Source: an uncultured Gemmatimonadales bacterium (GTDB taxonomy: Bacteria; Gemmatimonadota; Gemmatimonadetes; Longimicrobiales; RSA9). From it: DNA of 64,000 bases. The stretch spans positions 448,001-512,000 of the forward strand of contig CAWCUS010000002.1 of assembly GCA_963798845.1 (NCBI GenBank), written 5' to 3'. Below, one piece after another: positions 1 through 29,468 of the stretch. A program made the position numbers and the translations under genes. Positions within the stretch are counted from its first letter, which is position 1. Each line of letters opens with the position of its first letter. The notes under the pieces were generated by a model that did no database searches, was not told the origin of the DNA, and was given only the letters and a program-made list of their open reading frames with translations.

Positions 1-506
1 GCGACCTTGGCGACGAGGTCCATGACCTTGCGCATGGGGGGGGAGGCGCAGATGACGTTGCCGACCGAGTAGCGGGTCCCGAGCTCGGAGCGGAGGCGGC
101 GTGTGAGGTCGACCAGGTGCTTGCGCTCGAGTGCGCGGGCGGTGGTGACGATGAGGGCGGGCGGGCTGACCGGCTTCTCGAGGTAGTCGAAGGCTCCGAG
201 CTTGGTGGCCTCGACGGCGGTCTCAATGGTGCCGTAGCCGGTTATGATGATGACCTCGGTCTCGGGCGAGATGTCCTTGGCGTGGCGGAGGAGCTCGATC
301 CCGCTCATCTCGGGCATCTTGATGTCGAGGAGGAGGAGGTCGAACGTCTCCTTCCGGATCATCTCGAGCCCTTCGCGAGGCGAGGTGGAGGTGTTCACCA
401 CGTAGCCCTCGCCCGTGAGGACGCGGCGGATGCTCTCGCACACCACTTCCTCGTCGTCGACGGCCAGGACGCGGGGGGGCTCGGTCCAGCTCACTTCATC
501 CGTCAT
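1..506 (-). CDS. NtrC-family (sigma54-type) response regulator, N-terminal part; runs off the window start
   Basis: Manual translation MTDEVSWTEPPRVLAVDDEEVVCESIRRVL...LLDIKMPEMSG...ITGYGTIETAVEATKLGAFDYLEKP...ICASPPMRKVMDLVAKV. This is a REC domain plus the linker into an AAA+ domain. ATG overlaps the kinase stop (ATGA). Not in the ORF track. Confidence 0.85.
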   Translation of the reverse strand, partial: MTDEVSWTEPPRVLAVDDEEVVCESIRRVLTGEGYVVNTSTSPREGLEMIRKETFDLLLLDIKMPEMSGIELLRHAKDISPETEVIIITGYGTIETAVEATKLGAFDYLEKPVSPPALIVTTARALERKHLVDLTRRLRSELGTRYSVGNVICASPPMRKVMDLVAKV

Positions 507-2137
507 CGGCTCACAGCCATTGCAGGTTCTTTCGCCGTGGGCAGCAGTATGGTGAACTCGGACCACGACTCGCCATCGCTGTCCACCATGATGGAGCCGC
601 GGTAGCCGCGGACGATCCCGAGCGACACGGCCAGCCCGAGGCCGGAGCCCTGGCCCACGGGCTTGGTGGTGTAGAACGGGTCGAAGATCTTGGAGAAATG
701 TTCCCTTGGGACGCCCGGTCCGGTGTCGCGAACGCGCAGGCGCACCGCCTCGCTGCCGCCGTCCGGCGGCCACTCCACGCCGGGGAAGGCGTCGCGGCGG
801 ACCACGTCGCCGCGGATGCGTATCTCGCCGCCGTTCTCGCCCATGGCGTGGAGCGCGTTCATGATCAGGTTGATGAAGACCTGCATCAGCTGCTGCTCGT
901 TGACGTCGACCACGGGTAGGTCGGGCGCGATCTCCGACTGGACGCGGAAGCCGCCGTTCTGGATCTCGACCTTCACGAGGTCCAGGGCGCGAGCGACAAT
1001 GGGGCCGACTTTGCGCGGCTGCGTCTCGGGCTCTTCCGACTGCTTGCGCGAGTAGTCCAGGAGCTGGCGGATGATGGCGGCGCAGCGGTTCGCCTCCCGC
1101 TCGATCATGCGCAGGTCATCCTGAGCCCCCTCGTTGTCGGGCACGGCCGACTTCACCAGATGGGAGAAGGTGATGATCGCCATGAGCGGGCTGTTCAGCT
1201 CATGGGCGATCCCTGCGGCCACGAGCCCCACGGACGAGAGCTTCTCCGCCTGGAGCACCTGGAACTGCGCCTCGCGCAGCGCCTGCGCCTTCAATGCCAC
1301 GCGCTCCTCCAGCGTGCTGGCCCATTCCTCGAGCTGATGCCGCGAGCTGGCCAGGCTCTCGACCATCTCGTTGAAGGAGTCGGCCAGGATCGCGATCTCC
1401 GGCGCGGTGCCGCGGGGGACCGGGACGGAGCCCGCGCCCTCGACCACACGCCGGGTCGCGCTCACCATGCGCTGGATCGGCCGCCGGACGCTCCAGCGCA
1501 CGAGGAGGAAGAGGAGGAGCGTGATCAGGGTGACGGCGAGGACCGAGATCACGAGGGCGTCGCGGGTGTCCGCGGCCACGCGCTGCTCCGCCGGCGCCAT
1601 GGACATCGCCACGTCGAGGACCCCGAGAACGCTCTGCTGAGCGGGCGTGGCGTGGCATCCTGAGCCCTGACAGCCGAGCTCGTTGCGGATCACGTGGATC
1701 GTGCCCAGGAACCGTTCGCCGTCCGGTCCCGTGTACGTGCGCCAGCGCCGGTCGGGCTCGACCGACGCCCGCGCCTGCCCGTTGGCGTGGCACGTCACGC
1801 ACGCTTCGGAGCCTCGCGGCACCACGCGACCCACCTCCTCCGGATTCGACGAGTACGAGATCCGGCCCTGGCGGTTGTACAGCCGGATGCCCGCGATCCC
1901 CTCGTGCTGGCCCACCATCTCCAGCATTTCCCGCACGCCCTCCCGGTGGTTCAGCTGCATGTCCCGGTGGACGCTCAGGGCAATGGCGTCCGCGATGCTC
2001 TCTGAGCCGTGCACGACTTCCGCCCGCACCTGCTCTCGCTGACGCTGGATCAGGATGAACGAAAGAAGCCCCACGCTCACCAGGGTGAAGAACCCCGCGG
2101 TGAGGGCGATGCGCGTCCCCAAGTTCTTGAAGCTCAT
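503..2137 (-). CDS. Sensor histidine kinase (HAMP, HisKA, HATPase) with a periplasmic domain carrying c-heme-type motifs
   Basis: Two TM segments; CVTCH and CQGSGCH in the sensor loop; AHELNSPL H-box; DTGPG, FDPFYTTK, GSGLGL. GGAGG precedes the ATG at 2137. Confidence 0.9.
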   Translation of the reverse strand: MSFKNLGTRIALTAGFFTLVSVGLLSFILIQRQREQVRAEVVHGSESIADAIALSVHRDMQLNHREGVREMLEMVGQHEGIAGIRLYNRQGRISYSSNPEEVGRVVPRGSEACVTCHANGQARASVEPDRRWRTYTGPDGERFLGTIHVIRNELGCQGSGCHATPAQQSVLGVLDVAMSMAPAEQRVAADTRDALVISVLAVTLITLLLFLLVRWSVRRPIQRMVSATRRVVEGAGSVPVPRGTAPEIAILADSFNEMVESLASSRHQLEEWASTLEERVALKAQALREAQFQVLQAEKLSSVGLVAAGIAHELNSPLMAIITFSHLVKSAVPDNEGAQDDLRMIEREANRCAAIIRQLLDYSRKQSEEPETQPRKVGPIVARALDLVKVEIQNGGFRVQSEIAPDLPVVDVNEQQLMQVFINLIMNALHAMGENGGEIRIRGDVVRRDAFPGVEWPPDGGSEAVRLRVRDTGPGVPREHFSKIFDPFYTTKPVGQGSGLGLAVSLGIVRGYRGSIMVDSDGESWSEFTILLPTAKEPAMAVSR

Positions 2138-2309
2138 GGACCTCCAGCGACAGAGGCCGGGCAGGGGCTGGCTGCGCATTGACGTTCACCTCCGGCGCAA
2201 ACCGTGTCAATGCGGAAATGCACGTGTGGGAGCGTGGGGGGAAGCCCCGCGGGCTGCACCATCCGACTTCGAAGCCCGGACGCTGCAAGGGACGGGGCAG
2301 CGGGCCGGG

Positions 2310-10433: not shown

Positions 10434-11314
10434 CAGGGCGACGGGTGGTCGGGGTCCACGGTCACGACGGTTCCGGCCCCGGGGCGCGCGCCGCCACGGA
10501 GGTTCTCCTCGAGAATGGCGTTGCAGTCGGCCACTCCGGGATAATCGGGGCCCGCCCCCTCCAGACGTCCGCCGTCCGCAGCGAGCCGTCTCAACGCCTG
10601 GTCGATGGAGTGCTGTGCGGCGAACAGACAGGGCGTGCTGTAGATCGCCAGGTCGATCCCCGCCGAGGCCAGCTCCTCGAGGGATCGCGGCTCGGCCTTG
10701 CCCCCGGCGATCTGGTTGAATGCCCAGGGACGGTCGACTTCCCTTCGCAGTGTGCGGACCACCTCGAGATCGACCCCGTCCACCAGCACGGCGTCGGCGC
10801 CCGCCTGTGCGAAGGCCCGTACTCGCCGAAGCGCCTCCGCCGGCTCGCTCGCGTCGGTCCGGGCAACGACCAGGAGATCGGAGCGGGCCTCGAGCACCCG
10901 CTCCAGTTTCGACAGGTACTCATCCAGCTCCAGCAGCTGCTTGCCTTCGAGGTGACCGCACTTGCGCGGGCGCCGCTGGTCCTCCAGCACCACGCCGGAC
11001 GCGCCGGCCTGCTCGAGTGTGGCAGTCACGCGGGCGGCCACCACGGCATCGCCGTAGCCGTCGTCGATGTCCACCAGGAGGTGGTGGTCCGGCAGGACCC
11101 CGCGGACCCGGTGGACCAGCGAGACGATGTCGGGCCATGCCACGAAGCCCACGTCCGGCAGCCCGTAATGGCTGGCGGCCAGGCCGAAGCCACTGAGGAA
11201 CAGGGCATCGAAGTGGCGTGCGGCCAGGGACGCGGAGAACACGTCGTAGATGCCGATGAACGGGACGGTGGCGCCTCCCGCCAATCGTTCCCGCACCTCT
11301 GTGCCGGCGCTCAT
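10433..11314 (-). CDS. Isocitrate lyase/PEP mutase superfamily C-C lyase, oxaloacetate acetylhydrolase-like
   Basis: C-terminal part of track ORF 10433..12364, from MSAGTEV. Motifs DIDDGYG, LEDQRRPRKCGH, ARTDA, AIYST. Start and stop overlap both neighbours (ATGA, TGATG). Confidence 0.85.
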   Translation of the reverse strand: MSAGTEVRERLAGGATVPFIGIYDVFSASLAARHFDALFLSGFGLAASHYGLPDVGFVAWPDIVSLVHRVRGVLPDHHLLVDIDDGYGDAVVAARVTATLEQAGASGVVLEDQRRPRKCGHLEGKQLLELDEYLSKLERVLEARSDLLVVARTDASEPAEALRRVRAFAQAGADAVLVDGVDLEVVRTLRREVDRPWAFNQIAGGKAEPRSLEELASAGIDLAIYSTPCLFAAQHSIDQALRRLAADGGRLEGAGPDYPGVADCNAILEENLRGGARPGAGTVVTVDPDHPSP

Positions 11315-13161
11315 GATTCTGCGGCCATGAGAAGCTCGATTTCCGTGGCGGCACCCGCCACCGTCGGGGCATCGAAGAAACCGAGAAGCGGCAGCTCGAC
11401 CCGGAGGGAGTCCCGGATGCGCGCCACCAGCTGTGTGGCGGTGACCGAGTCCCCGCCAACCGCGAAGAAGTTGTCGTGGACGCCGGGCGGATCGCATCGC
11501 AGGACCTGCCCCCAGAGCGCCGCCAGGACTTCCTCGACCGGGGTCCGCGGCGCGACGTGGGGCGTGTCCACGCGGACGGGATCGAATGCCGGGATTCCCA
11601 GCCGGTCTGCCAGGCCAATGCGCTGGAGCTTGCCCGTAGCGCCTTTCGGGATCTCCTCCAGGAAGAGCACGCGACGCGGAACCTTGAAGTAGGCGAGGCG
11701 CGTGGCAACGAACTCCCGCAGCGCCCGCTCGGAGACATCGGCGTCCGGTCGGAGCACCACGGCCGCGGCCACATCCTCGCCCAGCTGCGGGTGGCGGACG
11801 GCGAACGCCAGCGCCTGCCGCACTGCGGGGTGCCCCATGAGCGCCTCGTCCACCTCCACCGGCGCGATCTTCTCGCCCCCGCGGTTGATGATCTCCTTGA
11901 TCCGGCCGGTCAGAACCAGGAACCCGTCCCCGTCCAGGTACCCCTGGTCTCCCGTCCGGAACCAGCCATCGGTGAAGGCGGTCCGGTTCGCCTCCGGGTT
12001 GTTCGCATAGCCGGCGGTCACGTTGGGGCCCCGGATCGCGACTTCCCCCGTCTCGCCCGTGCCCAGCCTCTCCCCCGCAGGGCCCAGGATGGCAACATCG
12101 GGTCCCGAGGCCGGGCCCACGGAGCCCGGCTTCCGTCCGCCCGGCGGCAAGGGATTGCTTGCGATCTGGTGCGCCGCTTCGGTCATGCCGTACGCTTCCA
12201 CCACCGGCACGGCGAAGACCCGCTCCAGCTCCGCCAGCGTGGCCCGCGGGAGCGGGGAAGACGACGAGCGGATGAACCGGAGCCGCGCCCGATCGATCAC
12301 CTCCCGGTTCGCTTCCGCCCGCGACAGGATCGCCTGGTGCATGGTCGGCACCGCCGTATACCACGTCGGTGCCGTCTCCTCCAGCCAGTCGAAGAAGTCG
12401 GGAGCCTGGAATCCCGGCGTGCAGATCACGCTGCCGCCCGCACGCAGCGACGAGAGGGCCGCCGCGACGAGGCCATGGATGTGGAAGAGGGGCATCACGT
12501 TCAGACAGCGATCGGCCTCGGTCAGGCCGAGCGCGCTCCCGACATTCGCCGCCGAAGCAGAGAGGTTGCCGTGGGACAGCGGCACCTGCTTCGGCCGCGA
12601 GGTCGTGCCGGAAGTATGCAGAACGAGGGCGACATCCGGCGCCTCAGGAGGCCTGGCCTCGCCGGCCACGCTCGCCGCCCCAGCGCCGCGGAGTCGCACG
12701 AGGCCCGCCGCCGCCTCCTCCTCCTCGTTCCGAACCGCTTCGAGCACCGGGATCCCCAGGCGCCGCGCCACCTCCCGCGCCGGGGAGTCCAGCGTCCCGT
12801 CGATCACCAGGATCCGGGCCGCCAGGTCCCCCAGGTAGAATTCCAGCTCGGGCGCCTGGTACGCCGGGTTGAGAGGCGCGGCTGCGCCCGCCGAAGCGGC
12901 CGCCAAAAAGAGGACCGCCGCTTCCGGGCCGTTCGGCAGGACCAGAGCTACCGCATCGCCGCGGCGTATTCCCCGATCGGTGAGGTCGGCCGACAGATCG
13001 CGCATGCGTCGGTCGAGTGACTCGTACGAGAGCGGGGGGCGTCCCGGCGCCGCGATGGCCGCATGCGCGGGCGTGTGCCGGGCGTGCCATGCGAGCATGG
13101 AGGGGAGGGTCGCCTCCGCTCCGGGCGCGGACAGCGCTGGGCTACCATTGAATCGGGTCAT
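11311..13161 (-). CDS. Oxalate-CoA ligase (AAE3/Pcs60)-like adenylation domain fused to a carrier (T) domain
   Basis: LHTSGTTSRPK, PLFHIHGL, TWYTAVPTMHQ, RFIRSSSS, EAYGMTEAAHQIASNPLPP, RIKEIINRGGEK. C-terminal NFFAVGGDSV phosphopantetheine site. Confidence 0.85.
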   Translation of the reverse strand: MTRFNGSPALSAPGAEATLPSMLAWHARHTPAHAAIAAPGRPPLSYESLDRRMRDLSADLTDRGIRRGDAVALVLPNGPEAAVLFLAAASAGAAAPLNPAYQAPELEFYLGDLAARILVIDGTLDSPAREVARRLGIPVLEAVRNEEEEAAAGLVRLRGAGAASVAGEARPPEAPDVALVLHTSGTTSRPKQVPLSHGNLSASAANVGSALGLTEADRCLNVMPLFHIHGLVAAALSSLRAGGSVICTPGFQAPDFFDWLEETAPTWYTAVPTMHQAILSRAEANREVIDRARLRFIRSSSSPLPRATLAELERVFAVPVVEAYGMTEAAHQIASNPLPPGGRKPGSVGPASGPDVAILGPAGERLGTGETGEVAIRGPNVTAGYANNPEANRTAFTDGWFRTGDQGYLDGDGFLVLTGRIKEIINRGGEKIAPVEVDEALMGHPAVRQALAFAVRHPQLGEDVAAAVVLRPDADVSERALREFVATRLAYFKVPRRVLFLEEIPKGATGKLQRIGLADRLGIPAFDPVRVDTPHVAPRTPVEEVLAALWGQVLRCDPPGVHDNFFAVGGDSVTATQLVARIRDSLRVELPLLGFFDAPTVAGAATEIELLMAAES

Positions 13162-18410: not shown

Positions 18411-18444
18411 AACAGTCCGGCGTGGAGGTTTAGTTTTGCCCCGT

Positions 18445-18517
18445 GGGCCGGTAGCTCAGCTGGCAGAGCAGTGGACTTTTAATCCAACGGTCGTGGGTTC
18501 GAGCCCCACCCGGCCCA
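18445..18517 (+). tRNA. tRNA-Lys (anticodon TTT); CCA not encoded
   Basis: GGGCCGG/CCGGCCC acceptor stem; D arm GCTC...GAGC; anticodon arm TGGA-CTTTTAA-TCCA; TTCGA T loop. Upstream TTGAAA-N18-TAGTTT. Confidence 0.95.
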
Positions 18518-18725
18518 TTTACCACCCTACTGCGTGACGATTCGCCAGACGCGCCCGTCACCGCGCGGTACGCCTCGTGCGCCTTCGGCTTCGCTCCTTT
18601 CCGACCGCCGCGGGCGGCCCGGGGGTGGGCGTGGAAAGGCTCGCGGAGTGAGGAAAATCACCGCGGTCGCATAGGGGCGATCCCCGACTGGCCCGGTCCA
18701 TAGGCCTGTCGTACCTTCTGGGACC

Positions 18726-20541
18726 ATGAGTCGGCTTGGAACACTTCTGACAACGCTGGTCGCGCGTCTGCGCGGCCTCCCCATCGGGGTGCAGGTGGTG
18801 GGCGGAGTGGTGGTTCTCGCTGCGCTGGGTGTGGGCTCCGTGCTGATGTACCGGACCTACAATTACGTGCAGCACGACAACCAGTTCTGTCTTCAGTGCC
18901 ACCTGATGCAGGACCCGTATGAGCGCTTCGCGAAGAGCGCGCACCGGGGGCTCGGGTGCAAGGCCTGCCATCATCCGAACATCATCCAGCGCAGCGAGAT
19001 GGGGCTGACGCAGATCATCGAGCAGCCCAAGGAGCTGACGAAGCACGCGAACGTGCCGAACTCCGCGTGCGCCGAGTGTCACATCAAGGGCAATCCGGAG
19101 GAGTGGCGACAGATCGCCAATACGGCCGGGCACCGGATCCACATGCAGTCGGACGATCCGTCGCTGCAGGGATTGAAGTGCGTGGAGTGCCACTCTTCGG
19201 GTCTGCACGAGTTCACGCCGACCGACCAGACGTGCGGGCAGGCAGGGTGTCACGAGAACACGCGGATCCGTCTCGGGAAGATGGGGAACCTGACGATCCA
19301 CTGCGCGACGTGTCACGACTTCACGACGCCCGTGGGCGAGGAAGCGACGCCGGCGCAGCTTGCCAGCGCCATCCGGCCCAACGCGCAGGAGTGCCTGGCC
19401 TGCCACCGAGATGCGCTCGCTGCTCCAGGACTTCCCTGCGGATGAGCCGCACAACGCGCAGTGCGGCGCGTGTCACGATCCGCACCGCCAGACGACGCCG
19501 CGGCAGGCGGTGCAGTCGTGTGCGAAGGGTGGCTGCCATGCACAGCCCGACACCCTCACGCCCTACCATCGCGGGCTGGACGCGGGCGTTCTCGAGAACT
19601 GCCTCAACTGCCACAAGGCGCACGAGTTCCGCATCCACGGCGGTGGCCGCGACTGCCTCGACTGCCACCAGGACATCTATCGCACGGATGCGCCCCCGCC
19701 GGCCCGGCGTCTGCCGCCCGCGGCCGCCGCGCCGAGCGCGTCCGGCGACACCGGCCGCGTGGCCAGTGCGCCGCGCGGCGCGATCCGGGTGGCGTCCGCC
19801 GGCCGGATCGATCCGTGGCTCATCCGCCTGGTGCTCGCTGCGCACCCCGGAGAGGCTGCGGTCGAAGCCTCCTCTGTCGCCGCCGCGGCACCGCAGCGGG
19901 ACACCGTGACCTTTCACCACGCGCAGCACCGCGGCGTGGAGTGCACCGCCTGCCACTCAATGCAGCGAGAGCATGGGGCGCTGACGGTCACGAGCATCCA
20001 GGACTGTCGGTCCTGTCACCACACGCAGCCGGTGGCGTCGAGCTGCACCCGCTGCCACGCGCAGCGCACCGTCCGCTCGCTCACGGTGCGGGTCCGGCGC
20101 ACCATGGACATCACGGTCGGGTCGCTGAACCACCCCGTGCGCACGCTCCCGTTCCAGCACCGGGTGCACGAAGGACTGGCGTGCACGAACTGCCACACGG
20201 GCGGCAGCGCGCTGAGCGCCGTGGACGTGAACTGCTCGAAGTGCCACGAGTCGCACCACCAGCCGAACCGCAACTGCATGGCCTGTCACGAGCAGCCGAA
20301 AGCCAAGGCGCACAACACGAAGGTGCACCTCGGATGCGCCGGCGCAGGGTGCCACCAGGCGGCACCGCGAAGCGTGGCCTCGGTGCCGCGGACGCGGAAC
20401 TTCTGCCTGGTTTGCCACCAGGCGATGGTGAACCACAACCCCGGCGAGAACTGTGAGGCCTGCCACGTGCTGCCTCGCCCCCGCGCCGCGGCCGCCAGGC
20501 CGTCCGGCACCGCCGGGACCGACCTCGCGGAGGGGACATGA
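18726..20541 (+). CDS. Membrane-anchored multiheme cytochrome c (about 20 hemes) with a NapC/NirT-like N-terminus; split by an apparent +1 base near 19406
   Basis: Track ORFs 18726..19445 and 19360..20541 join as CLACH-EMRSLL if one C is removed. 17 CxxCH plus 3 CxxxxCH. TM helix then NQFCLQCHLM. Confidence 0.85.
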
Positions 20542-20912
20542 AGCACGCGATCGCCACAGCCTGCCTGTCCGTTCTCGTGCTGGCCGGCTGCCGGGGCGCC
20601 GGCGACGACCAGGAGACCGGCAGCATCAGCGCCGACCAGGTCCGCAACGAGCGCTCGGACCTTCCCACCGCCGTCGTTGCGGCGCTCGACAGCGGCAACG
20701 CCGCTTACCGCGCCAACGACTACCAGGCGGCGCTCCAGCAGTACCGCAAGGTCGTCGAGCTCGAGCACGACCTGGCCGCCGGCTGGTTCGGGGTGTACAT
20801 GGCCCAGCTCGCCCTGGGCAACACCGAGGCGGCCGACTCCGCCATGAACGTCGCCCAGCAGCTGGCGCCCGGCGCCAGCCTCATTCATCCCGACCAGTCA
20901 CCGCAGCAATGA
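20538..20912 (+). CDS. TPR-like lipoprotein
   Basis: Lipobox LAGC; GNAAYRANDYQAALQQYRKVVEL helical repeat; ATGA overlaps on both sides. Confidence 0.75.
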   Translation: MKHAIATACLSVLVLAGCRGAGDDQETGSISADQVRNERSDLPTAVVAALDSGNAAYRANDYQAALQQYRKVVELEHDLAAGWFGVYMAQLALGNTEAADSAMNVAQQLAPGASLIHPDQSPQQ

Positions 20913-21403
20913 GCCGAGCGCCCACCGTGCTCTCGCTCGCCCTCGCTGTCGCCCTGGTCGCGACCGCGTGCGGCGACCACGAGTTCTCTCCACCTTCCGA
21001 GGAGTCCCGGATCGCCGGAGCCGACACCCTCTTCAGCCCGGCAATGTTCGACACCATCGAATGGTCCTCGCGCGCACAACGCATCGACGCCGGGAACATG
21101 GTCTTCGCCCAGAACTGCCGGCGCTGCCATGGACCCGTCGGGCGCGGTAACACCCAGTACGACCGCGACCACGACCTGCACCCGCCCTCGCTCGTCGAGC
21201 CAGACTTCCCCTACGACAGCGTAGGCGAGCTCAGGCACGTGGTCTTCACGGGACACCGGGGCGGAATGCCCGGCTGGGGCGTCGCCAGTCTCGACCCCCG
21301 CGACATCGACGCCGCCTCTTTCTACCTGCTGGAGCAGCTCCGCCCGGAGATGCTCTCCGACAGCACGCGGCTGCCCGGACCGCTCCGGGAACGTCCGCGC
21401 TGA
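20909..21403 (+). CDS. Monoheme cytochrome c lipoprotein
   Basis: From MSRAPTV; lipobox ATAC; GNMVFAQNCRRCHG; distal GMP. Confidence 0.85.
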   Translation: MSRAPTVLSLALAVALVATACGDHEFSPPSEESRIAGADTLFSPAMFDTIEWSSRAQRIDAGNMVFAQNCRRCHGPVGRGNTQYDRDHDLHPPSLVEPDFPYDSVGELRHVVFTGHRGGMPGWGVASLDPRDIDAASFYLLEQLRPEMLSDSTRLPGPLRERPR

Positions 21404-21528
21404 CGACGCCGGGCGACCCGCCGGCCCCGGCCCCGACCTTCCCCCGGCGCCCCGACCCTCCCGGTCGGGGCGCTCATTTTTCGCGGCTCGAGGACCGGTG
21501 GCGTAGCGAGGCTGCGCCGGCGGAGGGG

Positions 21529-21678
21529 TGCGCGGAGTGCGCGTTTCTGCGCGCTCCAAGTGCGCGAAAGCGCGCGATCCGCCGGTTCAAGAACCCACGG
21601 CCGGATGGATATGAACGTCGTAAACGATTGTATTGCAATGGTTTCCGGGGTCTGAACGCTTTCTGGTCTCCGCCTTGT
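21529..21678 (+). promoter_or_regulatory. Putative sigma54 promoter region: enhancer-like sites, IHF-like site, -24/-12 element
   Basis: TGCGCG-N4-YGCGCG at 21538 and 21561; AT-rich TAAACGATTGTAT at 21621-21633; TGGTCTCCGCCTTGT at 21664-21678. Confidence 0.45.
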
Positions 21679-21733
21679 ATTAGAGGAGGGCGGAAACCAC
21701 GGCCCGAGGAAGGGCCCTGATCGGGAGGCGGAG

Positions 21734-22900
21734 ATGACGACAATGACGGAAGGCGCGACTCAGGCGACGAGCCCGCTGACGCGGGGGATCGGGCCGGTAG
21801 GAAAGGTGGCGGTGAGCTGGGGGGCGGCGGGTGGCGTGCTGGTGGGTGGCTTCCTGGTGGCGGCGATGACGCTGGCGGGGAAGCTGAGCGGGCACGCGCT
21901 TCTGCTGACGAGCAGCGGACTGTTCGTGGTCGGGGCGGGTCTCGGATTCACGCACGGTGCGGTGCTGGGATGGATGGGCCGGGCGCGGGACGTCAGCCGG
22001 CGGGTGGCGGTGGGGCAGCTGGGTCTGGCAGCGGTGTACGCGGTCCCCGCGCTGCTGGTGTCGTGGCTGGTGGCGGGCTGGATCGCGATGACGTCGGTGG
22101 CGCTGTACACGGGGAAGATGGCGCCGCTGGTGGGCTCCGGGATCGCGTGGCTGGTGGGGATCGGCCTCGTCGTGCTGAGCCTGGAGCAGGGCTGGGCGGC
22201 GATCCGCGGCGCGTACGCGTCGTGGTCGAACGCACGGGCCGGGACACTGATCGTCGCGGCGCTCTTCAGCGGGCTCCTGGCTGCGTTCCTGACCGAGCGG
22301 CCGGAGCTGTGGGGCGTGCACCTGCGCGTCACGCCCGTCGGCGCGGTGCTGCTGGCACTCGCCGCGACGCTGTGGCTCGCCGGGCCGTTGGTCACGCTGT
22401 CGCTGGTCCTGCTGCAGCGGCTGCCGGTCAGGGCGCCCAGCGTGGCGTTCGGTGGGAAGGGAAGCACCGCGGTGAGCGTGGCCGTCGCCGTGCTGGTGGG
22501 CGTGGGCATGGCGCTGATCGCCCTTCCGTTCTACCAGGGCGACTACGTCCTCCCGGCCAGCACCGTTGCCGGCGTGCTCAGCACGGCCCTCCTCGACGAG
22601 GTCCTGCTCCGACTCTTCCTGGTCACCGCCGTGACCTGGGTGCTCCTGCGGGAGCTGAAGATCGGAAGCGGGCGCGCGGCTGCCCTCGCGGTCGCCGCCG
22701 GCGCCGCCGTGCAGGTCCTGATCTACCTCCCCGGCGTGCTGGCGATCGGGTTCCCCTCCGCCTCCATGACGGCCGGGTTCCTGGCCACCACCGTCGCGGT
22801 CCCGGCGATCGCCTTCGGGCTCCTCTTCTGGCGCCGCGGCTTCGGCACCGCGCTGGTTGCTCACGCCACCACGCTGGCGGCGCTCCTGATCGTCGGCTGA
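21734..22900 (+). CDS. Polytopic membrane protein with a C-terminal CPBP (CAAX protease)-like domain
   Basis: About 10 hydrophobic segments; LLDEVLLRLFL (EExxxR-like) and GFGTALVAH; GGAGG RBS. Confidence 0.65.
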   Translation: MTTMTEGATQATSPLTRGIGPVGKVAVSWGAAGGVLVGGFLVAAMTLAGKLSGHALLLTSSGLFVVGAGLGFTHGAVLGWMGRARDVSRRVAVGQLGLAAVYAVPALLVSWLVAGWIAMTSVALYTGKMAPLVGSGIAWLVGIGLVVLSLEQGWAAIRGAYASWSNARAGTLIVAALFSGLLAAFLTERPELWGVHLRVTPVGAVLLALAATLWLAGPLVTLSLVLLQRLPVRAPSVAFGGKGSTAVSVAVAVLVGVGMALIALPFYQGDYVLPASTVAGVLSTALLDEVLLRLFLVTAVTWVLLRELKIGSGRAAALAVAAGAAVQVLIYLPGVLAIGFPSASMTAGFLATTVAVPAIAFGLLFWRRGFGTALVAHATTLAALLIVG

Positions 22901-23179
22901 GAAGGGGAGGCTGGGCGGCGGCTGAGCCCGTCGCCCGGCTTCGATGCGGCCGGGGCTGCGGGACGCGGCTTCGGCCGCTTTCGCGCGTCCCGAGCGGAAC
23001 ACCGTCGTCGATCCTGAGCGCGCGCGGGAATGCGGGCCGCGACCGCGGGCGCAGCCGGCGTCCCGCGGAGCGCCTGAAGCCTCGCGCGCCCAACGCGCTC
23101 GCGCGCCACGCGACGTCCCGGCCCCGCCAGTGTCGGGGAATCCCCCTCTGTTTTCCACGGGTAATGCCCTCTACCGGAG

Positions 23180-23195
23180 TGCGCGGAACCGCGCA
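23180..23195. promoter_or_regulatory. Palindromic operator candidate upstream of the kinase/regulator genes
   Basis: TGCGCGG-AA-CCGCGCA, a perfect 7-bp inverted repeat similar to the sites at 21538 and 21561. Confidence 0.45.
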
Positions 23196-23255
23196 GTATT
23201 CAGCCGTGACCATGCGCGAAGACGCGCGGACCGCGTCGGAAGTGGAGGCCGGGTG

Positions 23256-24704
23256 ATGCGCTGGATCGAGCGACTGCGGAGGCAGCCGCTACGGACCAAG
23301 CTGGTGCTGACGACCGTGGGTACGGCGGTGGTGGTGTTTGGCGCCGGATCGCCGCTGACGTTCCGGTACTGGCGAGAGCAGTCGGAGGCGGCGGCGGAGC
23401 AGCAGGCGCTACTTGCGGCGGCCTCGGTGCGTTCGGCGGTGGAGGCGGGGATGTCGGCGGGGGAGCCGACGCGGGCGAGATCGGCGCTGCGGGACCTGTC
23501 GGAGCTGGAGTCGATCACGGCGGCGCGGGTCTACGCGACGACGGGGACGGTGCTGGTGTCGACGAACGTGGCGGAGGAGGGATCGAAGCGACCGGGGGTG
23601 TGGGTGCCGTCGCCCGTGGAGCTGCCGGAGCGGGGGACAGCGAGGCGGACGGCGGAGGGGGATGCGGTGAATGCGTTCCTGCCGATCAAGTCGGGGGGCG
23701 CGGCGGTGCTGGAGGTGGACTTCTCGCTGGCTCCGCTGGAAGCGGCGATGGACCGGGCGGCGAAGCTGGGGCTGCTGCTGCTGATCGGGAGCGTGGCGGC
23801 GGTGATCCTGATCGTGGCGACGATGCTCGAGCGGGAGGTGATGACGCCGATCGAACGCGTGGTGGGGATGCTGTCGCCGGAGCCGGGGTCGCGATCGGCG
23901 GGGCTGGAGCGGATCGAGGAATCGGTGGTGGATCTGGTGAGGAAGGAGCGGGAGGCGACGGCGAAGGCGGCGGAGCAGGAGGAGCGGCTGGCGACGCAGG
24001 CGGGGTTCGCGGAAGTGGGTGAGATGGCGGCGGAGATGGCGCACGAGTTCAAGCGGCCGCTGGCGTCGATCCGCTCGGCGGTGGGACTGCTGGAGCAGGA
24101 GTACGACCTGAACGACCAGGCGCAGTCGCTTCTCGGGGCGGTGGACGCTCAGCTGGTGAAGCTGGCGGAGACGATGCAGGACCTGTTCGCGCTGGCGAAG
24201 CCGATGGAGCTGGAGGCCGACGAATTCGAGGTGGCGGATGCGGTGGACAGCGCGCTGATCCAGCTGGCGGGGCTGACGGACACGTCAGGGCGGAAGGTGG
24301 AGCGGCGCTACGATTCGGCCACGCCGCCGGTGTCTGGTGACCAGCACCGCCTGGAGCAGGCCGTACTGAACCTGCTGCTGAACGCGATGGAGGCGATGGA
24401 GGCGGGCGGCGTCCTGACGGTGCTGGTGCGGCCGGAGGGCGGGCACGCCGTGGTCGAAGTGCGTGACACGGGTCCAGGCATCCCGCCGGAAGAGAGGGAG
24501 AAGGTGGTGCGGCCGTTCTACTCGACGAAGCCGGGGGGCACCGGTCTGGGTCTTCCGCTGGTGGCCCGGGTGGTGGCCGCGCATTCGGGGACGCTGGAGA
24601 TCGAGAGCGAGGTCGGGAGGGGCACCGCAGTGCGGATCACGCTGCCGTGTCGTCCGCTGGCCGAGGTGGAGGGAGCGGAGTCGTGGGCAACGCACGAATC
24701 CTGA
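23256..24704 (+). CDS. Sensor histidine kinase
   Basis: From MRWIER; two TM; AHEFKRPL; NAMEAM, DTGPG, FYSTK, GTGLGL. Confidence 0.92.
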   Translation: MRWIERLRRQPLRTKLVLTTVGTAVVVFGAGSPLTFRYWREQSEAAAEQQALLAAASVRSAVEAGMSAGEPTRARSALRDLSELESITAARVYATTGTVLVSTNVAEEGSKRPGVWVPSPVELPERGTARRTAEGDAVNAFLPIKSGGAAVLEVDFSLAPLEAAMDRAAKLGLLLLIGSVAAVILIVATMLEREVMTPIERVVGMLSPEPGSRSAGLERIEESVVDLVRKEREATAKAAEQEERLATQAGFAEVGEMAAEMAHEFKRPLASIRSAVGLLEQEYDLNDQAQSLLGAVDAQLVKLAETMQDLFALAKPMELEADEFEVADAVDSALIQLAGLTDTSGRKVERRYDSATPPVSGDQHRLEQAVLNLLLNAMEAMEAGGVLTVLVRPEGGHAVVEVRDTGPGIPPEEREKVVRPFYSTKPGGTGLGLPLVARVVAAHSGTLEIESEVGRGTAVRITLPCRPLAEVEGAESWATHES

Positions 24705-26035
24705 TCCTCGAGGACGACGACCTGCTGCGGCAGGTGACCGCGGAGCGTCTGGAGCGGGAGGGCTACTCCGTGACGACGGCGGCATCGCTGGCGGAGGTGG
24801 AGCCGGTGGTGGAGCACCACACGCCCGACCTGGCGCTTCTGGACATCAAGCTGCCGGACGGCGAGAGCACGGAGCTGCTGGAGGACCTGGTGGCGACGGG
24901 CGAGACGGTGTGCGTGGTCATGACGGCGCACGGCACGGTGCAGTCGGCGGTGCGCGCGCTGCGCGCCGGAGCGGTGGACTACCTCGAGAAGCCGTTCTCG
25001 TTCGACCGCCTGAGCGCCACCATCGCCGGTGCGCTGGAGCGAACGCGCCTGCAGCGGGAAGTGCGTGCGCTGCGGGAGCAGGCGGGCCTGGGAGGGGACG
25101 TGGTGGGGAGCAGCGCCGCGATGCGGGAGGTGTTCGACCTGGTCAAGCGGGTCGCGTCCGCGGAAGGGACGACCGTCCTGCTGGACGGCGAGACCGGGAC
25201 GGGGAAGGGGATGGTGGCGCAGGCGATCCACCGGGCAAGCCCGCGAGCGGACGGCCCTTTCATCAATGTGACCTGCTCGGCGCTGGCCGAGACGGTGATG
25301 GAATCGGAGCTGTTCGGCCACGAGAGGGGGGCGTTCACGGACGCCCGCACCATGAAGCGGGGGCTGGTGGAGCTGGCGGACGGCGGGACCCTCTTTCTCG
25401 ATGAGATCGGAGAGCTGGGGCTGCGTCTGCAGGGGAAGCTGCTGCGCTTCATCGAGGAGAAGCGGTTCCGCCGGGTGGGGGGGACGAAGGACCTGGTCGT
25501 GGACGCCCGCCTGATCGCGGCCACGAACCGGGACCTCGCGGCGGAAGTGGAGAAGGAGGAGTTCCGAGAGGATCTCTATTACCGGCTGCGTGTCTTCCCG
25601 ATCCGGCTCCCTCCGCTGCGCGAGCGGACATCGGACATCCCCGCCCTCCTCCTGACGTTCGTGGAGGAGTTCAATCGGCAGTTCGGGCGGCGGATCCTGG
25701 ACGTGTCGCCCGAGGCGATGGAGCTCCTGAAGGCGTACCGCTGGCCCGGGAACGTGCGCGAGCTGCGGAACGTGATCGAGCGCACGGTGCTCCTGGCCGA
25801 CGGACCGGTGCTGAAGCCGGAGATGCTGCCGCCGGAGGTGCGAGGGGAGCGGCCGAGGGAGGTGGGTCCGCTGGAGCTGGGGCCGGACGGGCTGGACGTG
25901 GAGGCGTTGGAGCGGGAGCTCCTCACGAAGGCGCTTCGCCGGGCGGAGGGGAACAAGACGGAGGCGGGGCGGCTGCTCGGGATGAGTCGTCATCAGGTGC
26001 GGAATCGACTGAAAAAATACGGAATGGATGAATGA
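24683..26035 (+). CDS. Sigma54-dependent response regulator (REC-AAA-Fis HTH)
   Basis: GETGTGK, ESELFGHERGAFTDA, GTLFLDEIGE, FREDLYYRL, WPGNVREL. Confidence 0.95.
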   Translation: MGNARILILEDDDLLRQVTAERLEREGYSVTTAASLAEVEPVVEHHTPDLALLDIKLPDGESTELLEDLVATGETVCVVMTAHGTVQSAVRALRAGAVDYLEKPFSFDRLSATIAGALERTRLQREVRALREQAGLGGDVVGSSAAMREVFDLVKRVASAEGTTVLLDGETGTGKGMVAQAIHRASPRADGPFINVTCSALAETVMESELFGHERGAFTDARTMKRGLVELADGGTLFLDEIGELGLRLQGKLLRFIEEKRFRRVGGTKDLVVDARLIAATNRDLAAEVEKEEFREDLYYRLRVFPIRLPPLRERTSDIPALLLTFVEEFNRQFGRRILDVSPEAMELLKAYRWPGNVRELRNVIERTVLLADGPVLKPEMLPPEVRGERPREVGPLELGPDGLDVEALERELLTKALRRAEGNKTEAGRLLGMSRHQVRNRLKKYGMDE

Positions 26036-28080
26036 GACACCGACTCGTGATGGGGCTGTCGGTGCTGGTGGCGGTTGGCCTGTGGGCGTCGCCGGCTGGG
26101 GCGCAGCAGGCGCTCACGTGCAGCCAGTGCCATGGCGAGCTCGAGCTGCTGAGGCAGCACACGGGCAGTCTCTCCGAGGCGCGGGCTCTCCTGGTCCCCG
26201 ACTCGCTCCTGGACGGCACGGCGCACGCGGGATTCGCGTGCTCGCAATGCCACACCGGCTTCGACCGGTTCCCGCACCGGGCCGAGGCGAGGTCTCGGAC
26301 GTGCGTGGACTGCCACGAGGAGGTGGCGGCCAAGTGGCGTCAGGGCGCGCACGCCGAGGGGGAGGGGCGGGCCGGAGTCGCATGCACGGAGTGCCACACG
26401 ACCCACACCGTGGCCCCGCCCGAGGCGCTGGACGTGGCGGGCGCCGCCATGGCGACCATGGTGGGCCAGTGTGTGACGTGCCACGAGACGCAACGCCTGG
26501 GCGAGGATGATCCGCACGCCGGGGAAGCGCCGTGCTACGCATGCCACGCGCCGCACGCGGCGATGCCGCCCGACCTGCCGGAGTCGGGGCTGAGTCCGGC
26601 GTCGCAGCCGCGGACGTGCGGCGCGTGCCACGACTCCATCGCGACCGCCTGGCAGACCGACGTGCACGGTCAGGCGCTGCGGGAAGCGGCGGCGCGGGGC
26701 GACGTCGAGCTGAGCAATTCCGAGGTGCCCACGTGCACCGCCTGCCACGGAGCGCACCCTACAGCGGGGCCGTCCGGTCCGAACGCGCCCGCGCTGGCGG
26801 TGGCCGCGTGCTCGCGCTGCCACGAGGAGTATGCGGAGTCGTACGCGGATTCGTACCACGGGCAGGCCAAGCGGCTGGGCTCCGGGACCGTGGCGACCTG
26901 CGCGGCGTGCCATGGTGCGCACCAGATCTACGGCAAGGGCGACCCGCGCTCCACCGTCGCCCCTGCCAACCTGGTGGGGACGTGCCGGAGCTGCCATCCG
27001 GACGCGACATCGTCGTTCGCGAAGTTCGACCCGCACGCGAATCCGCACGAGCGGAGCCGCAATCCTCTGCTGTACTGGGCGTACAAGTTCATGACGTGGC
27101 TGCTGATCGGGACAATGGCCATGTTCGGGCTGCACACGCTGCTGTGGCTGCTCCGTATCGCCATCGACGCCGCTCGCGGAAGCAGCCCGCACGGGTACAG
27201 GCTGCCGAGCCAGGACGTGGCGCTGGACGCGGCGCAGCGAGGCCACGGCCGCTACGTCTGGCGCTTTCGCCTGTATCACCGGCTCACTCACGCCGCAGTG
27301 ATCATCTCGTTCTTCCTGCTCGTGTTCACGGGGATGCCGCTGCGCTTCAGCTGTGCGCCCTGGTCGGCCGGGCTCATGCGCCTGTTCGGCGGCGTGCACG
27401 CGGCCGGGCTCCTGCACCGGGTGGGGGCGTCGATCACGTTCGGGTACTTCGCCGCGCACCTCTTCTACATGATCCGCGCGCTGATCCGCACGCCGGACCG
27501 GCGTCGTCTGCTGTGGGGCGCGGACTCCATCGTGCCCCACCCTCAGGACATCATCGACTTCACGAACCAGTTCCGCTGGTTCCTGGGCCTGGGGCCGCGG
27601 CCGAAGTTCGCTCGCTACAGCTACATGGAGAAGTTCGACTACTTCGCCGTGTTCTGGGGCGTCGCGATCATCGGCGGGACCGGGCTGATGCTCTGGTTCC
27701 CCGAGCTGTTCGCCGGATTGGTGCCGGGTTGGTTCTTCAACGTGGCCACGGTGGTGCACGGCAATGAGGCGATGCTCGCCACGCTGTTCATCTTCACCAT
27801 CCACTTCTTCAACGTCCACCTGCGGCCAGAGAAGTTCCCGCTCGACGCCGTCATGTTCACGGGGCGGGCGACGGTGGAGTACATGGAAGAGGAGCACCCG
27901 CGCATCCTGGACCACATCGAGGCCAGGGCCAGCGAGCCGGCGCGGGCGGACCAGGCCCCGGACGCCCCCGCGGCGCCGCCCAGCCGGAGGCAGACGCTGG
28001 TGGCCGCCATACTCGGATTCCTCGCCCTCGGACTGGGACTCTTGCTGATCGGAATGATGACATGGGTAAGCTTCTGCTGA
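26032..28080 (+). CDS. 11-heme cytochrome c fused to a di-heme cytochrome b (FdnI/HyaC-like) membrane domain; CbcL-like architecture
   Basis: Signal peptide (AGA-QQ); 11 CxxCH; then RLTH, LLHR, YSYMEKFDYFAVFWG, VVHGNEA, IHFFNVH. Confidence 0.88.
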   Translation: MRHRLVMGLSVLVAVGLWASPAGAQQALTCSQCHGELELLRQHTGSLSEARALLVPDSLLDGTAHAGFACSQCHTGFDRFPHRAEARSRTCVDCHEEVAAKWRQGAHAEGEGRAGVACTECHTTHTVAPPEALDVAGAAMATMVGQCVTCHETQRLGEDDPHAGEAPCYACHAPHAAMPPDLPESGLSPASQPRTCGACHDSIATAWQTDVHGQALREAAARGDVELSNSEVPTCTACHGAHPTAGPSGPNAPALAVAACSRCHEEYAESYADSYHGQAKRLGSGTVATCAACHGAHQIYGKGDPRSTVAPANLVGTCRSCHPDATSSFAKFDPHANPHERSRNPLLYWAYKFMTWLLIGTMAMFGLHTLLWLLRIAIDAARGSSPHGYRLPSQDVALDAAQRGHGRYVWRFRLYHRLTHAAVIISFFLLVFTGMPLRFSCAPWSAGLMRLFGGVHAAGLLHRVGASITFGYFAAHLFYMIRALIRTPDRRRLLWGADSIVPHPQDIIDFTNQFRWFLGLGPRPKFARYSYMEKFDYFAVFWGVAIIGGTGLMLWFPELFAGLVPGWFFNVATVVHGNEAMLATLFIFTIHFFNVHLRPEKFPLDAVMFTGRATVEYMEEEHPRILDHIEARASEPARADQAPDAPAAPPSRRQTLVAAILGFLALGLGLLLIGMMTWVSFC

Positions 28081-29468
28081 CGCTGACGCTGGCGCTGGCC
28101 GCCTTCCTCGCCGGCTGCGAGCAAGGCGGACCGGGTGCGTCGCAGGAGAGGGGAGCCGGCGCTCGCGCGGAAGCCACCGCGGCCGCGTCCGTCCGGGAGC
28201 AGCACGCGGATCCCCACGCGGACCTGGCGTGCCGGGCGTGCCACCAGGGGCCGCAGGGCGAGCGCGGCAGGGCGACCGTGCCGGCGTGGTCGTGCAAGGC
28301 GTCGGGCTGCCACGAGTCCGGCGGCCCGCCTGAGGTGCAGGTGGCCACCGTGGAGTTCGGGCACCGGGACCACGGCCAGAACGGCGAGGTCCAGGCGACA
28401 TGCGCGGGATGCCACACCCACAGCGCGGGCGGCGAGCCGCTGCAGGCTTCGGTGGACGCGTGCACCCTGTGTCACCTGTCGCAGGTGTCGAGCCGCGCGC
28501 CGGAGGACTGCCGGGTGTGCCACCAGCAGCCGGACCACTCCAGGCTGACGAGCCAGGGCGTGGTGGTCTCCCACTCGAAGCTGCCGTGGATGGAGATCGG
28601 GTGTGTGCGCTGCCACTATGACGTCTCGGAGGCGGAAACGAGCGTGGCCAGCGCGCGCTGCCGGGAGTGCCACACGGACATTGCAGCCCTCAACCAGCAG
28701 GCGGTGGGCCGCGACCTCCATCCGCTGCACGATGGCGTGAGCTGCACGTCCTGCCACGAGAAGCACATGCACCGCGTGGCGGCCATGAGCTCGGCCGTCG
28801 ACCTCATCTGCTCCGACTGCCATCGCGAGGAGCACGGGGTGGCGCTGAAGGGAGCGGGGGCTTGGCCCCAGAGCAGCGTTTGCTCGACGTGCCACGAGGG
28901 GGTGCACGCGGCGCAACAGCAGCTCATCCTGGGCGTCTCGCCCGACGGCGAGGTGGTCCCCAGCGCCAAGTTCCTGGCCGGAGTGACGTGCCGGTCCTGC
29001 CACGTGCCCACACCGGGCGACTCTGTGGGCCCGCTCCGGGGCGAAGCGCAGGCGTGCGGCATGTGTCACGACCAGCGCTACACGCAGGTGCTGAGCTGGT
29101 GGATGAGCGGCGTGCAGTCGCGTCTCAACGCGGCGCGCGGCTATCTCCACACGGCCGAGACGACGCTGCGGAGCGCTCCGGACAGCGCCCGCGCGCTGCT
29201 CGGGTCCGCGACCCAGATGGTCGACCTGGTGGCGCGCGCTGGCGGCGAGCACAACCTTGAGCTGAGCGATCGCCTGATGCGCGCCGCCGTGGAGCGGACG
29301 CGGGAGGCCTACGCCGTGTCGGGAAAGACGGCCCCGGCCGCGCCGAACATGGGGCCGGTCCCCCACATGGGGCTCTGCTCCTACTGCCACTACAGCACGT
29401 CCCGGCCGCTGGACATCCGGGACATGCCCGACGAGTTCCACCAGCGGGTTCTGCGGCAGCGGCAGTAG
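28062..29468 (+). CDS. Multiheme cytochrome c lipoprotein (13 heme motifs)
   Basis: Lipobox LAGC; 12 CxxCH plus CKASGCH; helical C-terminal region with GEHN. Confidence 0.88.
   Translation: MGKLLLTLTLALAAFLAGCEQGGPGASQERGAGARAEATAAASVREQHADPHADLACRACHQGPQGERGRATVPAWSCKASGCHESGGPPEVQVATVEFGHRDHGQNGEVQATCAGCHTHSAGGEPLQASVDACTLCHLSQVSSRAPEDCRVCHQQPDHSRLTSQGVVVSHSKLPWMEIGCVRCHYDVSEAETSVASARCRECHTDIAALNQQAVGRDLHPLHDGVSCTSCHEKHMHRVAAMSSAVDLICSDCHREEHGVALKGAGAWPQSSVCSTCHEGVHAAQQQLILGVSPDGEVVPSAKFLAGVTCRSCHVPTPGDSVGPLRGEAQACGMCHDQRYTQVLSWWMSGVQSRLNAARGYLHTAETTLRSAPDSARALLGSATQMVDLVARAGGEHNLELSDRLMRAAVERTREAYAVSGKTAPAAPNMGPVPHMGLCSYCHYSTSRPLDIRDMPDEFHQRVLRQRQ

Follow-up and report, generated by a model that had tools for sequence, protein, structure and literature searches.

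We analysed a 64-kb window (64,000 nucleotides, positions 448,001 to 512,000 of contig CAWCUS010000002.1, assembly GCA_963798845.1) from an uncultured bacterium of the phylum Gemmatimonadota, in which a locus rich in multihaem cytochromes extends from position 18726 to 29468. Window coordinates are used unless a contig is named. A six-frame scan of the window for CXXCH, CX3CH and CX4CH detected 50 haem-c-type motifs, 45 of which (41 CXXCH and four CX4CH) lie in the coding frames of five open reading frames (ORFs) of the locus; this is the number, about 45, announced by the original prediction, a reading of the DNA made before any database search. The ORFs at 18726-19445 and 19411-20541 contain six CXXCH plus one CX4CH and 11 plus two, respectively; the ORF at 20909-21403 contains one motif, that at 26032-28080 contains 11, and the last one (28062-29468) contains 12 CXXCH and one CX4CH. 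The five motifs outside these ORFs are two in a sensor-kinase ORF (503-2179(-)) and single ones at 13076, 24480(-) and 59402. The haem-rich locus is genuine and goes far beyond what chance would give; one element of its initial outline was wrong, the ORF described as carrying 20 haems being split.

Genes were called from Pfam and NCBIfam matches and from a reading of hydropathy and lipoboxes. The locus is made of two transcription units, the first one covering positions 18726-21403 and the second one 21734-29468. Unit 1 comprises the 20-haem gene, with its NrfH/NapC-like head, a TPR lipoprotein gene and a monohaem lipoprotein gene. Unit 2 encodes a membrane protein, a histidine kinase, a sigma54-dependent regulator, an 11-haem protein in which c-type and b-type domains are fused (the c/b fusion) and a 13-haem lipoprotein. 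Family matches and hydropathy agree with the earlier identification of both small lipoproteins, the c/b fusion, the 13-haem lipoprotein and the sigma54 two-component pair. Molybdenum, NiFe and porin families had no Pfam or NCBIfam match within 18726-29468.

The c/b fusion (26032..28080, +) is CbcL-like, with a signal peptide, 11 CXXCH motifs and a C-terminal membrane domain of five to six helices. In a 33-sequence alignment each of the 11 CXXCH motifs is paired with a conserved distal His, and in the membrane domain His 368, 420, 462, 576, 591 and 596 are present in 97-100% of the sequences, a pattern that, at the level of sequence, fits 11 bis-His c haems plus two b haems. The match to the FdnI model NF007558 was weak (E 1.4e-3, 18 bits, cut-off 339), and a PDB sequence search gave one weak match, to 'cytochrome c' 28pb_A (E 1e-6). 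The PF01292 model (cut-off 30.1) recognised the ORF of related locus L063 (39.5 bits, E 6.6e-10) and a 15-haem paralogue in this genome (48.5 bits, E 1.1e-12), the ORF of locus L057 staying under the cut-off (20.2 bits, E 5.5e-4). The c and b halves belong together, because they are encoded by separate but adjacent genes in nine relatives (G005, G007, G009, G010, G014, G018, G021, G029 and G032); they are fused in this genome, in G001 and in G026. A second c/b gene is present in the operon of some clades. The gene of the 13-haem lipoprotein (28062..29468, +; 12 CXXCH, one CX4CH, lipobox LAGC) overlaps the c/b gene by 19 nt.

The 15-haem paralogue (27% identity with the 11-haem fusion, E 1e-48) is encoded about 20 kb upstream, in a paralogous module that had been missed initially and that runs off the window start to C2:443351-448599. 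Besides this 15-haem c/b fusion, the module contains a sigma54 response regulator across the window start, a small receiver protein and, outside the cluster, the histidine kinase at 503..2179 (-), whose two haem-c motifs (CXXCH and CX4CH) are in its periplasmic part.

The first three genes of unit 2 point to its regulation. The polytopic membrane protein (21734..22900, +) matched no Pfam or NCBIfam family; it contains a conserved E-x3-R (E289, R293), and Rce1-like/CPBP proteins make up 13-71% of the members of its nearest Atlas clusters. It may be a degenerate Rce1/CPBP-like protein, that is, an intramembrane protease-like partner of the sensor. The sensor histidine kinase (22944..24704, +; HisKA, HATPase_c), whose true start is probably near 23256, has about 135 amino acids on the periplasmic side between two transmembrane helices, and the sigma54-dependent response regulator that follows (24647..26035, +; REC, AAA+, HTH_8) has a stop overlapping the start of the 11-haem gene. 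Upstream, a sigma54-type -24/-12-like motif (TGGTCTCCGCCTTGTAT, 21664..21680, +) lies 69 nt before the membrane-protein gene. The relatives' motif, GGCAC-N5-TTG(T/C) and commonly TTGTAC, matches at least 9 of 11 consensus positions and stands 60-98 nt before the same gene in 24 of 39 cases, for a background at that threshold of 61 matches in 1.49 Mb of the same loci (0.016 per 380 nt). Before eight other genes tested nothing comparable exceeded 7/11, and no upstream sigma54-like motif above 7/11 was found for the 20-haem gene, a 9-haem lipoprotein gene located elsewhere in the genome (see below) or the paralogous 15-haem module. In the window as a whole, the canonical TGGCAC-N5-TTGC with up to two mismatches gave 37 matches for 52.7 expected, none in the cluster's intergenic regions. 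Because of the -24/-12-like motif, the presence of rpoN in the genome and the overlapping genes, unit 2 has the appearance of a sigma54 operon that regulates itself. The regulated electron-transfer chain that had been predicted is consistent with this regulator, with rpoN and with the conservation of the motif in relatives.

Unit 2 is widely conserved in the Gemmatimonadota. We collected 62 related loci as matches from a scan with the 11-haem c/b protein and located their neighbouring genes by tblastn with the window proteins. All but three are, by their titles, from Gemmatimonadota metagenome-assembled genomes (MAGs; one is titled only 'bacterium'), the exceptions being from Phycisphaerales, Calditrichaeota and Latescibacterota. 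The c/b gene has the 13-haem gene behind it in 53 of the 62 loci, the sigma54 regulator precedes it in 47, and the membrane protein lies ahead of the kinase in 40; most loci without one of these neighbours end at contig edges. The flanks of the loci in relatives are unrelated housekeeping genes.

We then turn to unit 1. The 5' part of the 20-haem gene (18726..19445, +; PF03264, TIGR03153) encodes a transmembrane anchor, an NrfH/NapC-like tetrahaem head and three more motifs, seven in total. The head scored 38.3 bits with PF03264 (E 1.4e-9, cut-off 24.1), and its membrane helix corresponds to residues 22-40. With the NrfH model TIGR03153, positions 5-136 of 138 were aligned (E 6e-13), at 49 bits and thus below the cut-off of 134, and the head is far under the NapC/TorC equivalog cut-offs (17.5 vs 310 for TIGR02161 and 17.6 vs 478 for TIGR02162). 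Its first motif reads CLQCHLM, CXXCHLM being invariant in 46/46 aligned orthologues; a CXXCHxM first motif is a feature of haem 1 in NrfH. A PDB sequence search with the head gave no match. This head and the b-type domain with its six conserved His correspond to the two separate quinol-interacting modules that had been proposed.

The alignment over the whole NrfH model would also suit a donor module for a soluble-substrate enzyme encoded elsewhere, comparable to NrfH with its partner NrfA; this enzyme could be a reductase of nitrite, hydroxylamine, sulfur or N-oxides. An octahaem PF13447 protein on contig C6 does match the NrfA family, although weakly and below the cut-off (E 1.5e-4). However, the best match to NrfA PF02335 in the genome reached 21.5 bits for a cut-off of 24.1, so that no partner was found that would make the locus part of a known nitrite enzyme, an outcome the original prediction had named as fatal to it. 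Moreover, the annotated loci contain no catalytic subunit beside either unit, and the conserved neighbour of the 20-haem gene is an outer-membrane barrel with a 16-haem protein, not an enzyme. We thus hold such a donor role to be very improbable, and it is the weakest of the three alternative functions considered here.

The 20 haems are not encoded by one ORF. The 3' part of the gene (19411..20541, +), in the +1 frame, contains 13 motifs, a variable linker and a C-terminal 9-haem module, and has no signal peptide of its own. The frame change comes directly after the seventh motif, and DNA alignment places the frameshift site at 19405..19411 (+), with one extra base at 19408 compared with the same-genus orthologue; here the reading frame of relatives continues as CH-Q-M-R. 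The original prediction was thus right about the NapC/NirT head and the number of motifs (7 + 13), but not about a single protein. A single open frame with 20 motifs is present in 10 of 11 relatives' loci, where intact orthologues have about 525-640 amino acids, and the eleventh locus, from the same genus, is broken elsewhere, in the variable linker. The best 120 database homologues of an intact orthologue, named 'NapC/NirT family cytochrome c' by NCBI, are all intact (524-636 amino acids). In the 46-sequence alignment, the intact orthologues have 21 invariant non-motif His for 20 motifs. We considered a programmed frameshift at 19408. The site, CAC CGA GAT, gives the His tRNA no re-pairing and is not a slippery sequence; it is also absent from the same-genus genome and from the 10 intact relatives. 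For these two reasons a programmed event is unlikely. Should the break be genuine, the product made and exported would be reduced to an anchored stub with seven haems.

The variable linker (window 19700-19900) separates haem 11 from haem 12, and in several relatives its last part is a hydrophobic stretch followed by A-x-A-Q. This end resembles a relic signal peptide, which suggests an old fusion between an 11-haem anchored protein and a 9-haem periplasmic one. Two small genes complete unit 1, that of the TPR lipoprotein (20538..20912, +; lipobox LAGC) and that of a monohaem class-I cytochrome c lipoprotein (20909..21403, +; PF13442). A terminator-like hairpin with a 12-bp stem and a T run (21446..21484, +) lies 3' of the monohaem gene, at the end of the unit.

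That no catalytic subunit and no porin lie in the cluster, as had been stated, holds for 18726-29468 but is misleading with regard to the porin. In five of the 62 related loci (L021, L022, L029, L047 and L050) a protein of about 490 amino acids, without Pfam match, and a 16-haem cytochrome of about 480 amino acids are encoded between the 20-haem and TPR genes. The homologues in this genome, a 519-amino-acid protein and a 16-haem protein (44-53% identity), are on contig C6, where the order at C6:139896-144883 is 9-haem lipoprotein, 519-amino-acid protein, 16-haem protein and TPR lipoprotein. The last of these genes is a paralogue of the TPR lipoprotein gene of unit 1 (20538..20912), located 3' of the 16-haem gene (37% identity, E 9e-21). 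The AlphaFold model of the 519-amino-acid protein (44 sequences) is a barrel of about 24 strands, with a predicted local distance difference test score (pLDDT) of 82 and a predicted template modelling score (pTM) of 0.74. Foldseek with this model returned outer-membrane barrels only, and VIA-align ranked 22-strand TonB-dependent transporters (Z 18-19) and the FimD usher (Z 18) above MtrB (6r2q_B, Z 15.8, rank 22). At least 794 proteins, all annotated as 'hypothetical', make up the family, and those from named taxa all belong to Gemmatimonadota or Longimicrobiales; the nearest Atlas clusters of the barrel are likewise unnamed and from Gemmatimonadota. The genome-wide search for porin-cytochrome genes that had been recommended thus recovered the barrel and 16-haem set on C6, but no gene of the MtrB_PioB family. 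In L047 the 16-haem orthologue matches the MtrC/MtrF domain II/IV model (E 2e-12).

The 60 relatives contain 33 barrel loci, which we tabulated from gene coordinates. In 22 of them the gene immediately upstream of the barrel gene has, at its end, the 9-haem module found at the C-terminus of the 20-haem protein, and 18 of these 22 have a 9-haem lipoprotein gene ahead of that gene. In eight others the 9-haem lipoprotein gene itself occupies this position, an arrangement also seen in this genome and its closest kin; the remaining loci have another c/b gene (1/33) or a contig edge (2/33) there. The 9-haem module is also found in shorter proteins before other barrel copies. In public records, the 16-haem, barrel and 20-haem genes lie side by side under consecutive locus tags.

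In this genus, the broken 20-haem arm could be a decaying pseudogene, leaving the 7-haem stub and the two small lipoproteins, with a barrel that works with the 9-haem lipoprotein alone. The two genomes of the genus are broken at different sites, against 10 relatives and the best 120 homologues that are intact; the 20-haem gene no longer stands before the barrel in this genus and its closest kin; and the other genes examined in the window (503-35484) gave full-length domain matches and no second frame break. On the other side, both genomes are made of few contigs (6 and 8), which is compatible with long-read data (the read type being deduced from the contig numbers), and single-base indel errors are common in such data; the extra base may then be an assembly error. 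The codon-position GC remains gene-like in both frames, and G005 and G021, which share the rearranged layout, have an intact 20-haem gene. In our view the chance of such a decay falls somewhat short of even.

Co-occurrence connects the two units. Among the 36 genomes of the same family, the 20-haem module was found in 23, the barrel in 23, the 9-haem lipoprotein in 24 and the c/b fusion in 16, and all 16 fusion-bearing genomes also have the barrel, the 20-haem module and the lipoprotein; in the two other families of the order the figures are 0-1 of 12 each. Taken together with the synteny, these results lead us to propose, with a probability of roughly 0.5, that the locus is the inner-membrane and periplasmic half of a trans-envelope electron conduit of the porin-cytochrome type. 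Gene content, motifs, domain families, synteny, the barrel fold and the promoter-like motif were computed; from them we infer quinol oxidation, protein contacts, the direction of flow and the outside partner. The kinase, perhaps with the membrane protein encoded upstream of it, would sense a periplasmic or membrane signal, and the sigma54 regulator would then switch on its own operon. The c/b fusion would exchange electrons with the quinone pool in the manner of CbcL and hand them along its bis-His haems to the 13-haem lipoprotein of the overlapping gene. Unit 1 would add a second quinol site, of the NrfH/NapC type, at the head of a 20-haem chain, plus the TPR and monohaem lipoproteins. The last stretch, to the outer membrane or through it, would fall to the 13-haem and 9-haem lipoproteins and to the barrel together with the 16-haem protein; in this way respiratory electrons could be exchanged across the envelope, in either direction, with redox partners that are insoluble or extracellular.

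A bolder version concerns the intact 20-haem protein, which might be a 'CymA-plus-MtrA' in one polypeptide. Its NrfH-type head would be anchored in the inner membrane and its C-terminal 9-haem module, on a flexible linker, would plug into or dock on the Gemmatimonadota-specific 24-strand barrel, so that a covalently continuous haem wire would join the quinone pool with the outer membrane; in this genus the wire would have become detached from the barrel and be undergoing loss. We consider this version speculative, with the odds clearly against it.

The same components might instead stop at the periplasm, the two quinol modules loading some 30-45 periplasmic haems that would buffer the redox state or feed reductases or oxidases in the periplasm, with the monohaem c leading to a terminal oxidase and no crossing of the outer membrane. 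Such a hub or store would fit a window without a barrel and the fact that most loci have unit 2 without 20-haem or barrel genes nearby; it would also fit haems that all look bis-His, i.e. electron-transfer haems, the presence of the monohaem PF13442 cytochrome in unit 1 and the many other respiratory haem modules of the genome (an ACIII-like set, a 9-haem protein with a cytochrome b and an NrfD-hexahaem fusion). Nevertheless, the barrel and the 20-haem module accompany the fusion in all 16 same-family genomes that have it, the 20-haem gene directly precedes the barrel in most relatives, and the lipid anchors of the 13-haem and 9-haem proteins fit a station at the outer membrane. We therefore regard a purely periplasmic role as rather unlikely.

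For a trans-envelope conduit, as we propose, the direction of flow has to be weighed as well. The machine might run inward, with extracellular Fe(II), reduced humics or a cathode as the electron source and with the quinone pool or, via the monohaem c, an oxidase as the destination. Unit 1 encodes a high-potential-type monohaem c, and, in the parts of the two papers available to us, CbcL/MtoC/MtrH-type proteins occur in Fe(III) reducers and Fe(II) oxidisers alike (PMC6295460) and Cyc2-like genes were surveyed in Gemmatimonadota MAGs (PMC9769843). Yet the sequence fixes no direction, and NrfH/NapC-type heads are usually quinol dehydrogenases. An inward flow appears distinctly unlikely to us.

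Several observations weigh against the proposed conduit. First, the window contains no outer-membrane barrel or surface cytochrome, and the 20-haem/TPR/monohaem set adjoins unit 2 in only 7 of the 62 related loci; the single cluster seen initially is real as an adjacency in this genome, but it consists of separate transcription units that are rarely neighbours elsewhere. The functional link between the two units is drawn from their co-occurrence in related and thus non-independent genomes, and is a matter of linkage, not of statistics. Second, the 20-haem gene is broken in this genome and, at another site, in the same-genus genome, and two breaks in one genus may indicate decay of the 20-haem arm. 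The structure prediction that had been suggested for haem wires was of no help, the AlphaFold model of an intact orthologue (P0121, 46 sequences) being too poor for use (pLDDT 55.6, pTM 0.28). Third, MtrB is one of many barrels at similar Z and a shared fold shows no function; MtrB_PioB (PF11854) had no match in the genome, the barrel being of another family, and the 16-haem protein bears no lipobox but a plain signal sequence or anchor. Fourth, the c/b fusion itself gave no PF01292 match at E 0.01, and the -24/-12-like motif of this genome matches 7 of 11 consensus positions, with TTGT instead of TTGC in the -12 element. Finally, in the literature searched we found no report of reduction or oxidation of an extracellular substrate by any member of the phylum.

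The window has a G+C content of 70%, and the host genome comprises 4.26 Mb in 6 contigs and is 96% complete. The 5' side of the cytochrome locus is occupied by ffh, rpsP, rimM, trmD, rplS, rnhB, a small membrane protein gene and a tRNA-Lys gene (anticodon TTT; 18444..18518, +; ARAGORN), which forms its left border; on the 3' side are an HIBADH-like dehydrogenase and then a PAS-GGDEF-EAL protein. At 2310-13161 (-) the window also encodes a two-module nonribosomal peptide synthetase of 2707 amino acids, with thioesterase and phosphopantetheinyl-transferase domains, plus a 616-amino-acid adenylation-carrier protein. Genome-wide, 20 ORFs contain two or more CXXCH motifs. Cytochrome c maturation genes, the lack of which had been named as a reason to reject the prediction, are present as system I (Ccm), and the genome search gave no match for system II (ResB/CcsB).

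Other multihaem gene sets were observed in this genome. At C3:116085-122957 (L083) an NrfD-like membrane protein is fused to a 6-haem domain and adjoins a 4Fe-4S protein, a CCG/HdrD-like protein and a sigma54 activator; this set is a further quinone-linked redox complex. Contig C6 contains a 9-haem cytochrome gene followed by a cytochrome b/b6 gene (C6:10393-14000, L081), an ACIII-like pair made of a 1074-amino-acid molybdopterin/FeS protein and a pentahaem protein (C6:264647-268397, L086), and the octahaem PF13447 cytochrome gene, the only weak NrfA-family match in the genome, divergent from an adjoining gene for an outer-membrane barrel of the Alginate_exp family (C6:658184-660867, L084).

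The lineage had been described as not known for such chains, which is an overstatement, since the parts of Zhong & Shi 2018 (PMC6295460) that we consulted list, among 138 CbcL/MtoC/MtrH homologues from 15 phyla with 3-23 motifs, one Gemmatimonadetes CbcL-type protein with 19 motifs and 6 transmembrane helices, and also two Gemmatimonadetes ImcH homologues. From the portions seen, multihaem proteins or Cyc2-like genes are mentioned in Gemmatimonadota MAGs in PMC9769843, and such cytochromes and porin-cytochrome clusters in MAGs, with the phylum not singled out, in PMC11495043 and PMC13264449. A literature search of journals accessible without subscription returned neither experimental studies of Gemmatimonadetes CbcL- or ImcH-type genes nor any account of the barrel family or the 20-haem protein with its NrfH-like head. 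If the proposed conduit is correct, the phylum gains a route to minerals, humics or electrodes, and the few trans-envelope conduits known so far are extended by a barrel family and a fused architecture that are both new. The respiration of Gemmatimonadota, a phylum abundant in soils and sediments, is poorly known. The value is lower for this window itself, where the barrel is elsewhere, one gene is frame-broken and the parts belong to catalogued families.

Compared with known systems, the c/b fusion has the architecture of CbcL from Geobacter sulfurreducens and of the CbcL/MtoC/MtrH group, with an N-terminal, periplasmic multihaem c part and a C-terminal b-type membrane part (HydC/FdnI-like in that group), the likeness being one of architecture. 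It differs from CbcL in having 11 motifs instead of 9, in its operon with a kinase, a sigma54 regulator and a 13-haem lipoprotein, and in the separate c and b genes of many relatives; with regard to the CbcL group, the b561 Pfam model is met by its paralogue and an orthologue but not by the window protein. The head of the 20-haem protein resembles NrfH and CymA in its single N-terminal helix, its four CXXCH and its CXXCHxM first motif. In contrast to these proteins, it is extended by 16 haems, including the C-terminal 9-haem module after the variable linker, it has no NrfA partner over the cut-off in the genome, and in relatives its gene precedes an outer-membrane barrel. ImcH of Geobacter is likewise an inner-membrane NapC/NirT-related cytochrome, and the frameshift stub happens to have 7 motifs like ImcH. 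ImcH homologues have three transmembrane helices and an adjacent CX3CH, according to the part of PMC6295460 consulted, whereas the head has one helix and a CXXCH first motif; we thus rejected an identity with ImcH. The porin-cytochrome conduits (MtrCAB, MtoAB/PioAB and Geobacter Pcc/Ext) are similar in that a large barrel gene is flanked by multihaem cytochromes and preceded by inner-membrane quinol-type cytochromes. Here, however, the barrel belongs to an unnamed family, without Pfam match and distinct from MtrB_PioB; the barrel set and the window locus are on different contigs, and the partners of the barrel are a 9-haem lipoprotein, a 16-haem protein without lipobox and a TPR lipoprotein.

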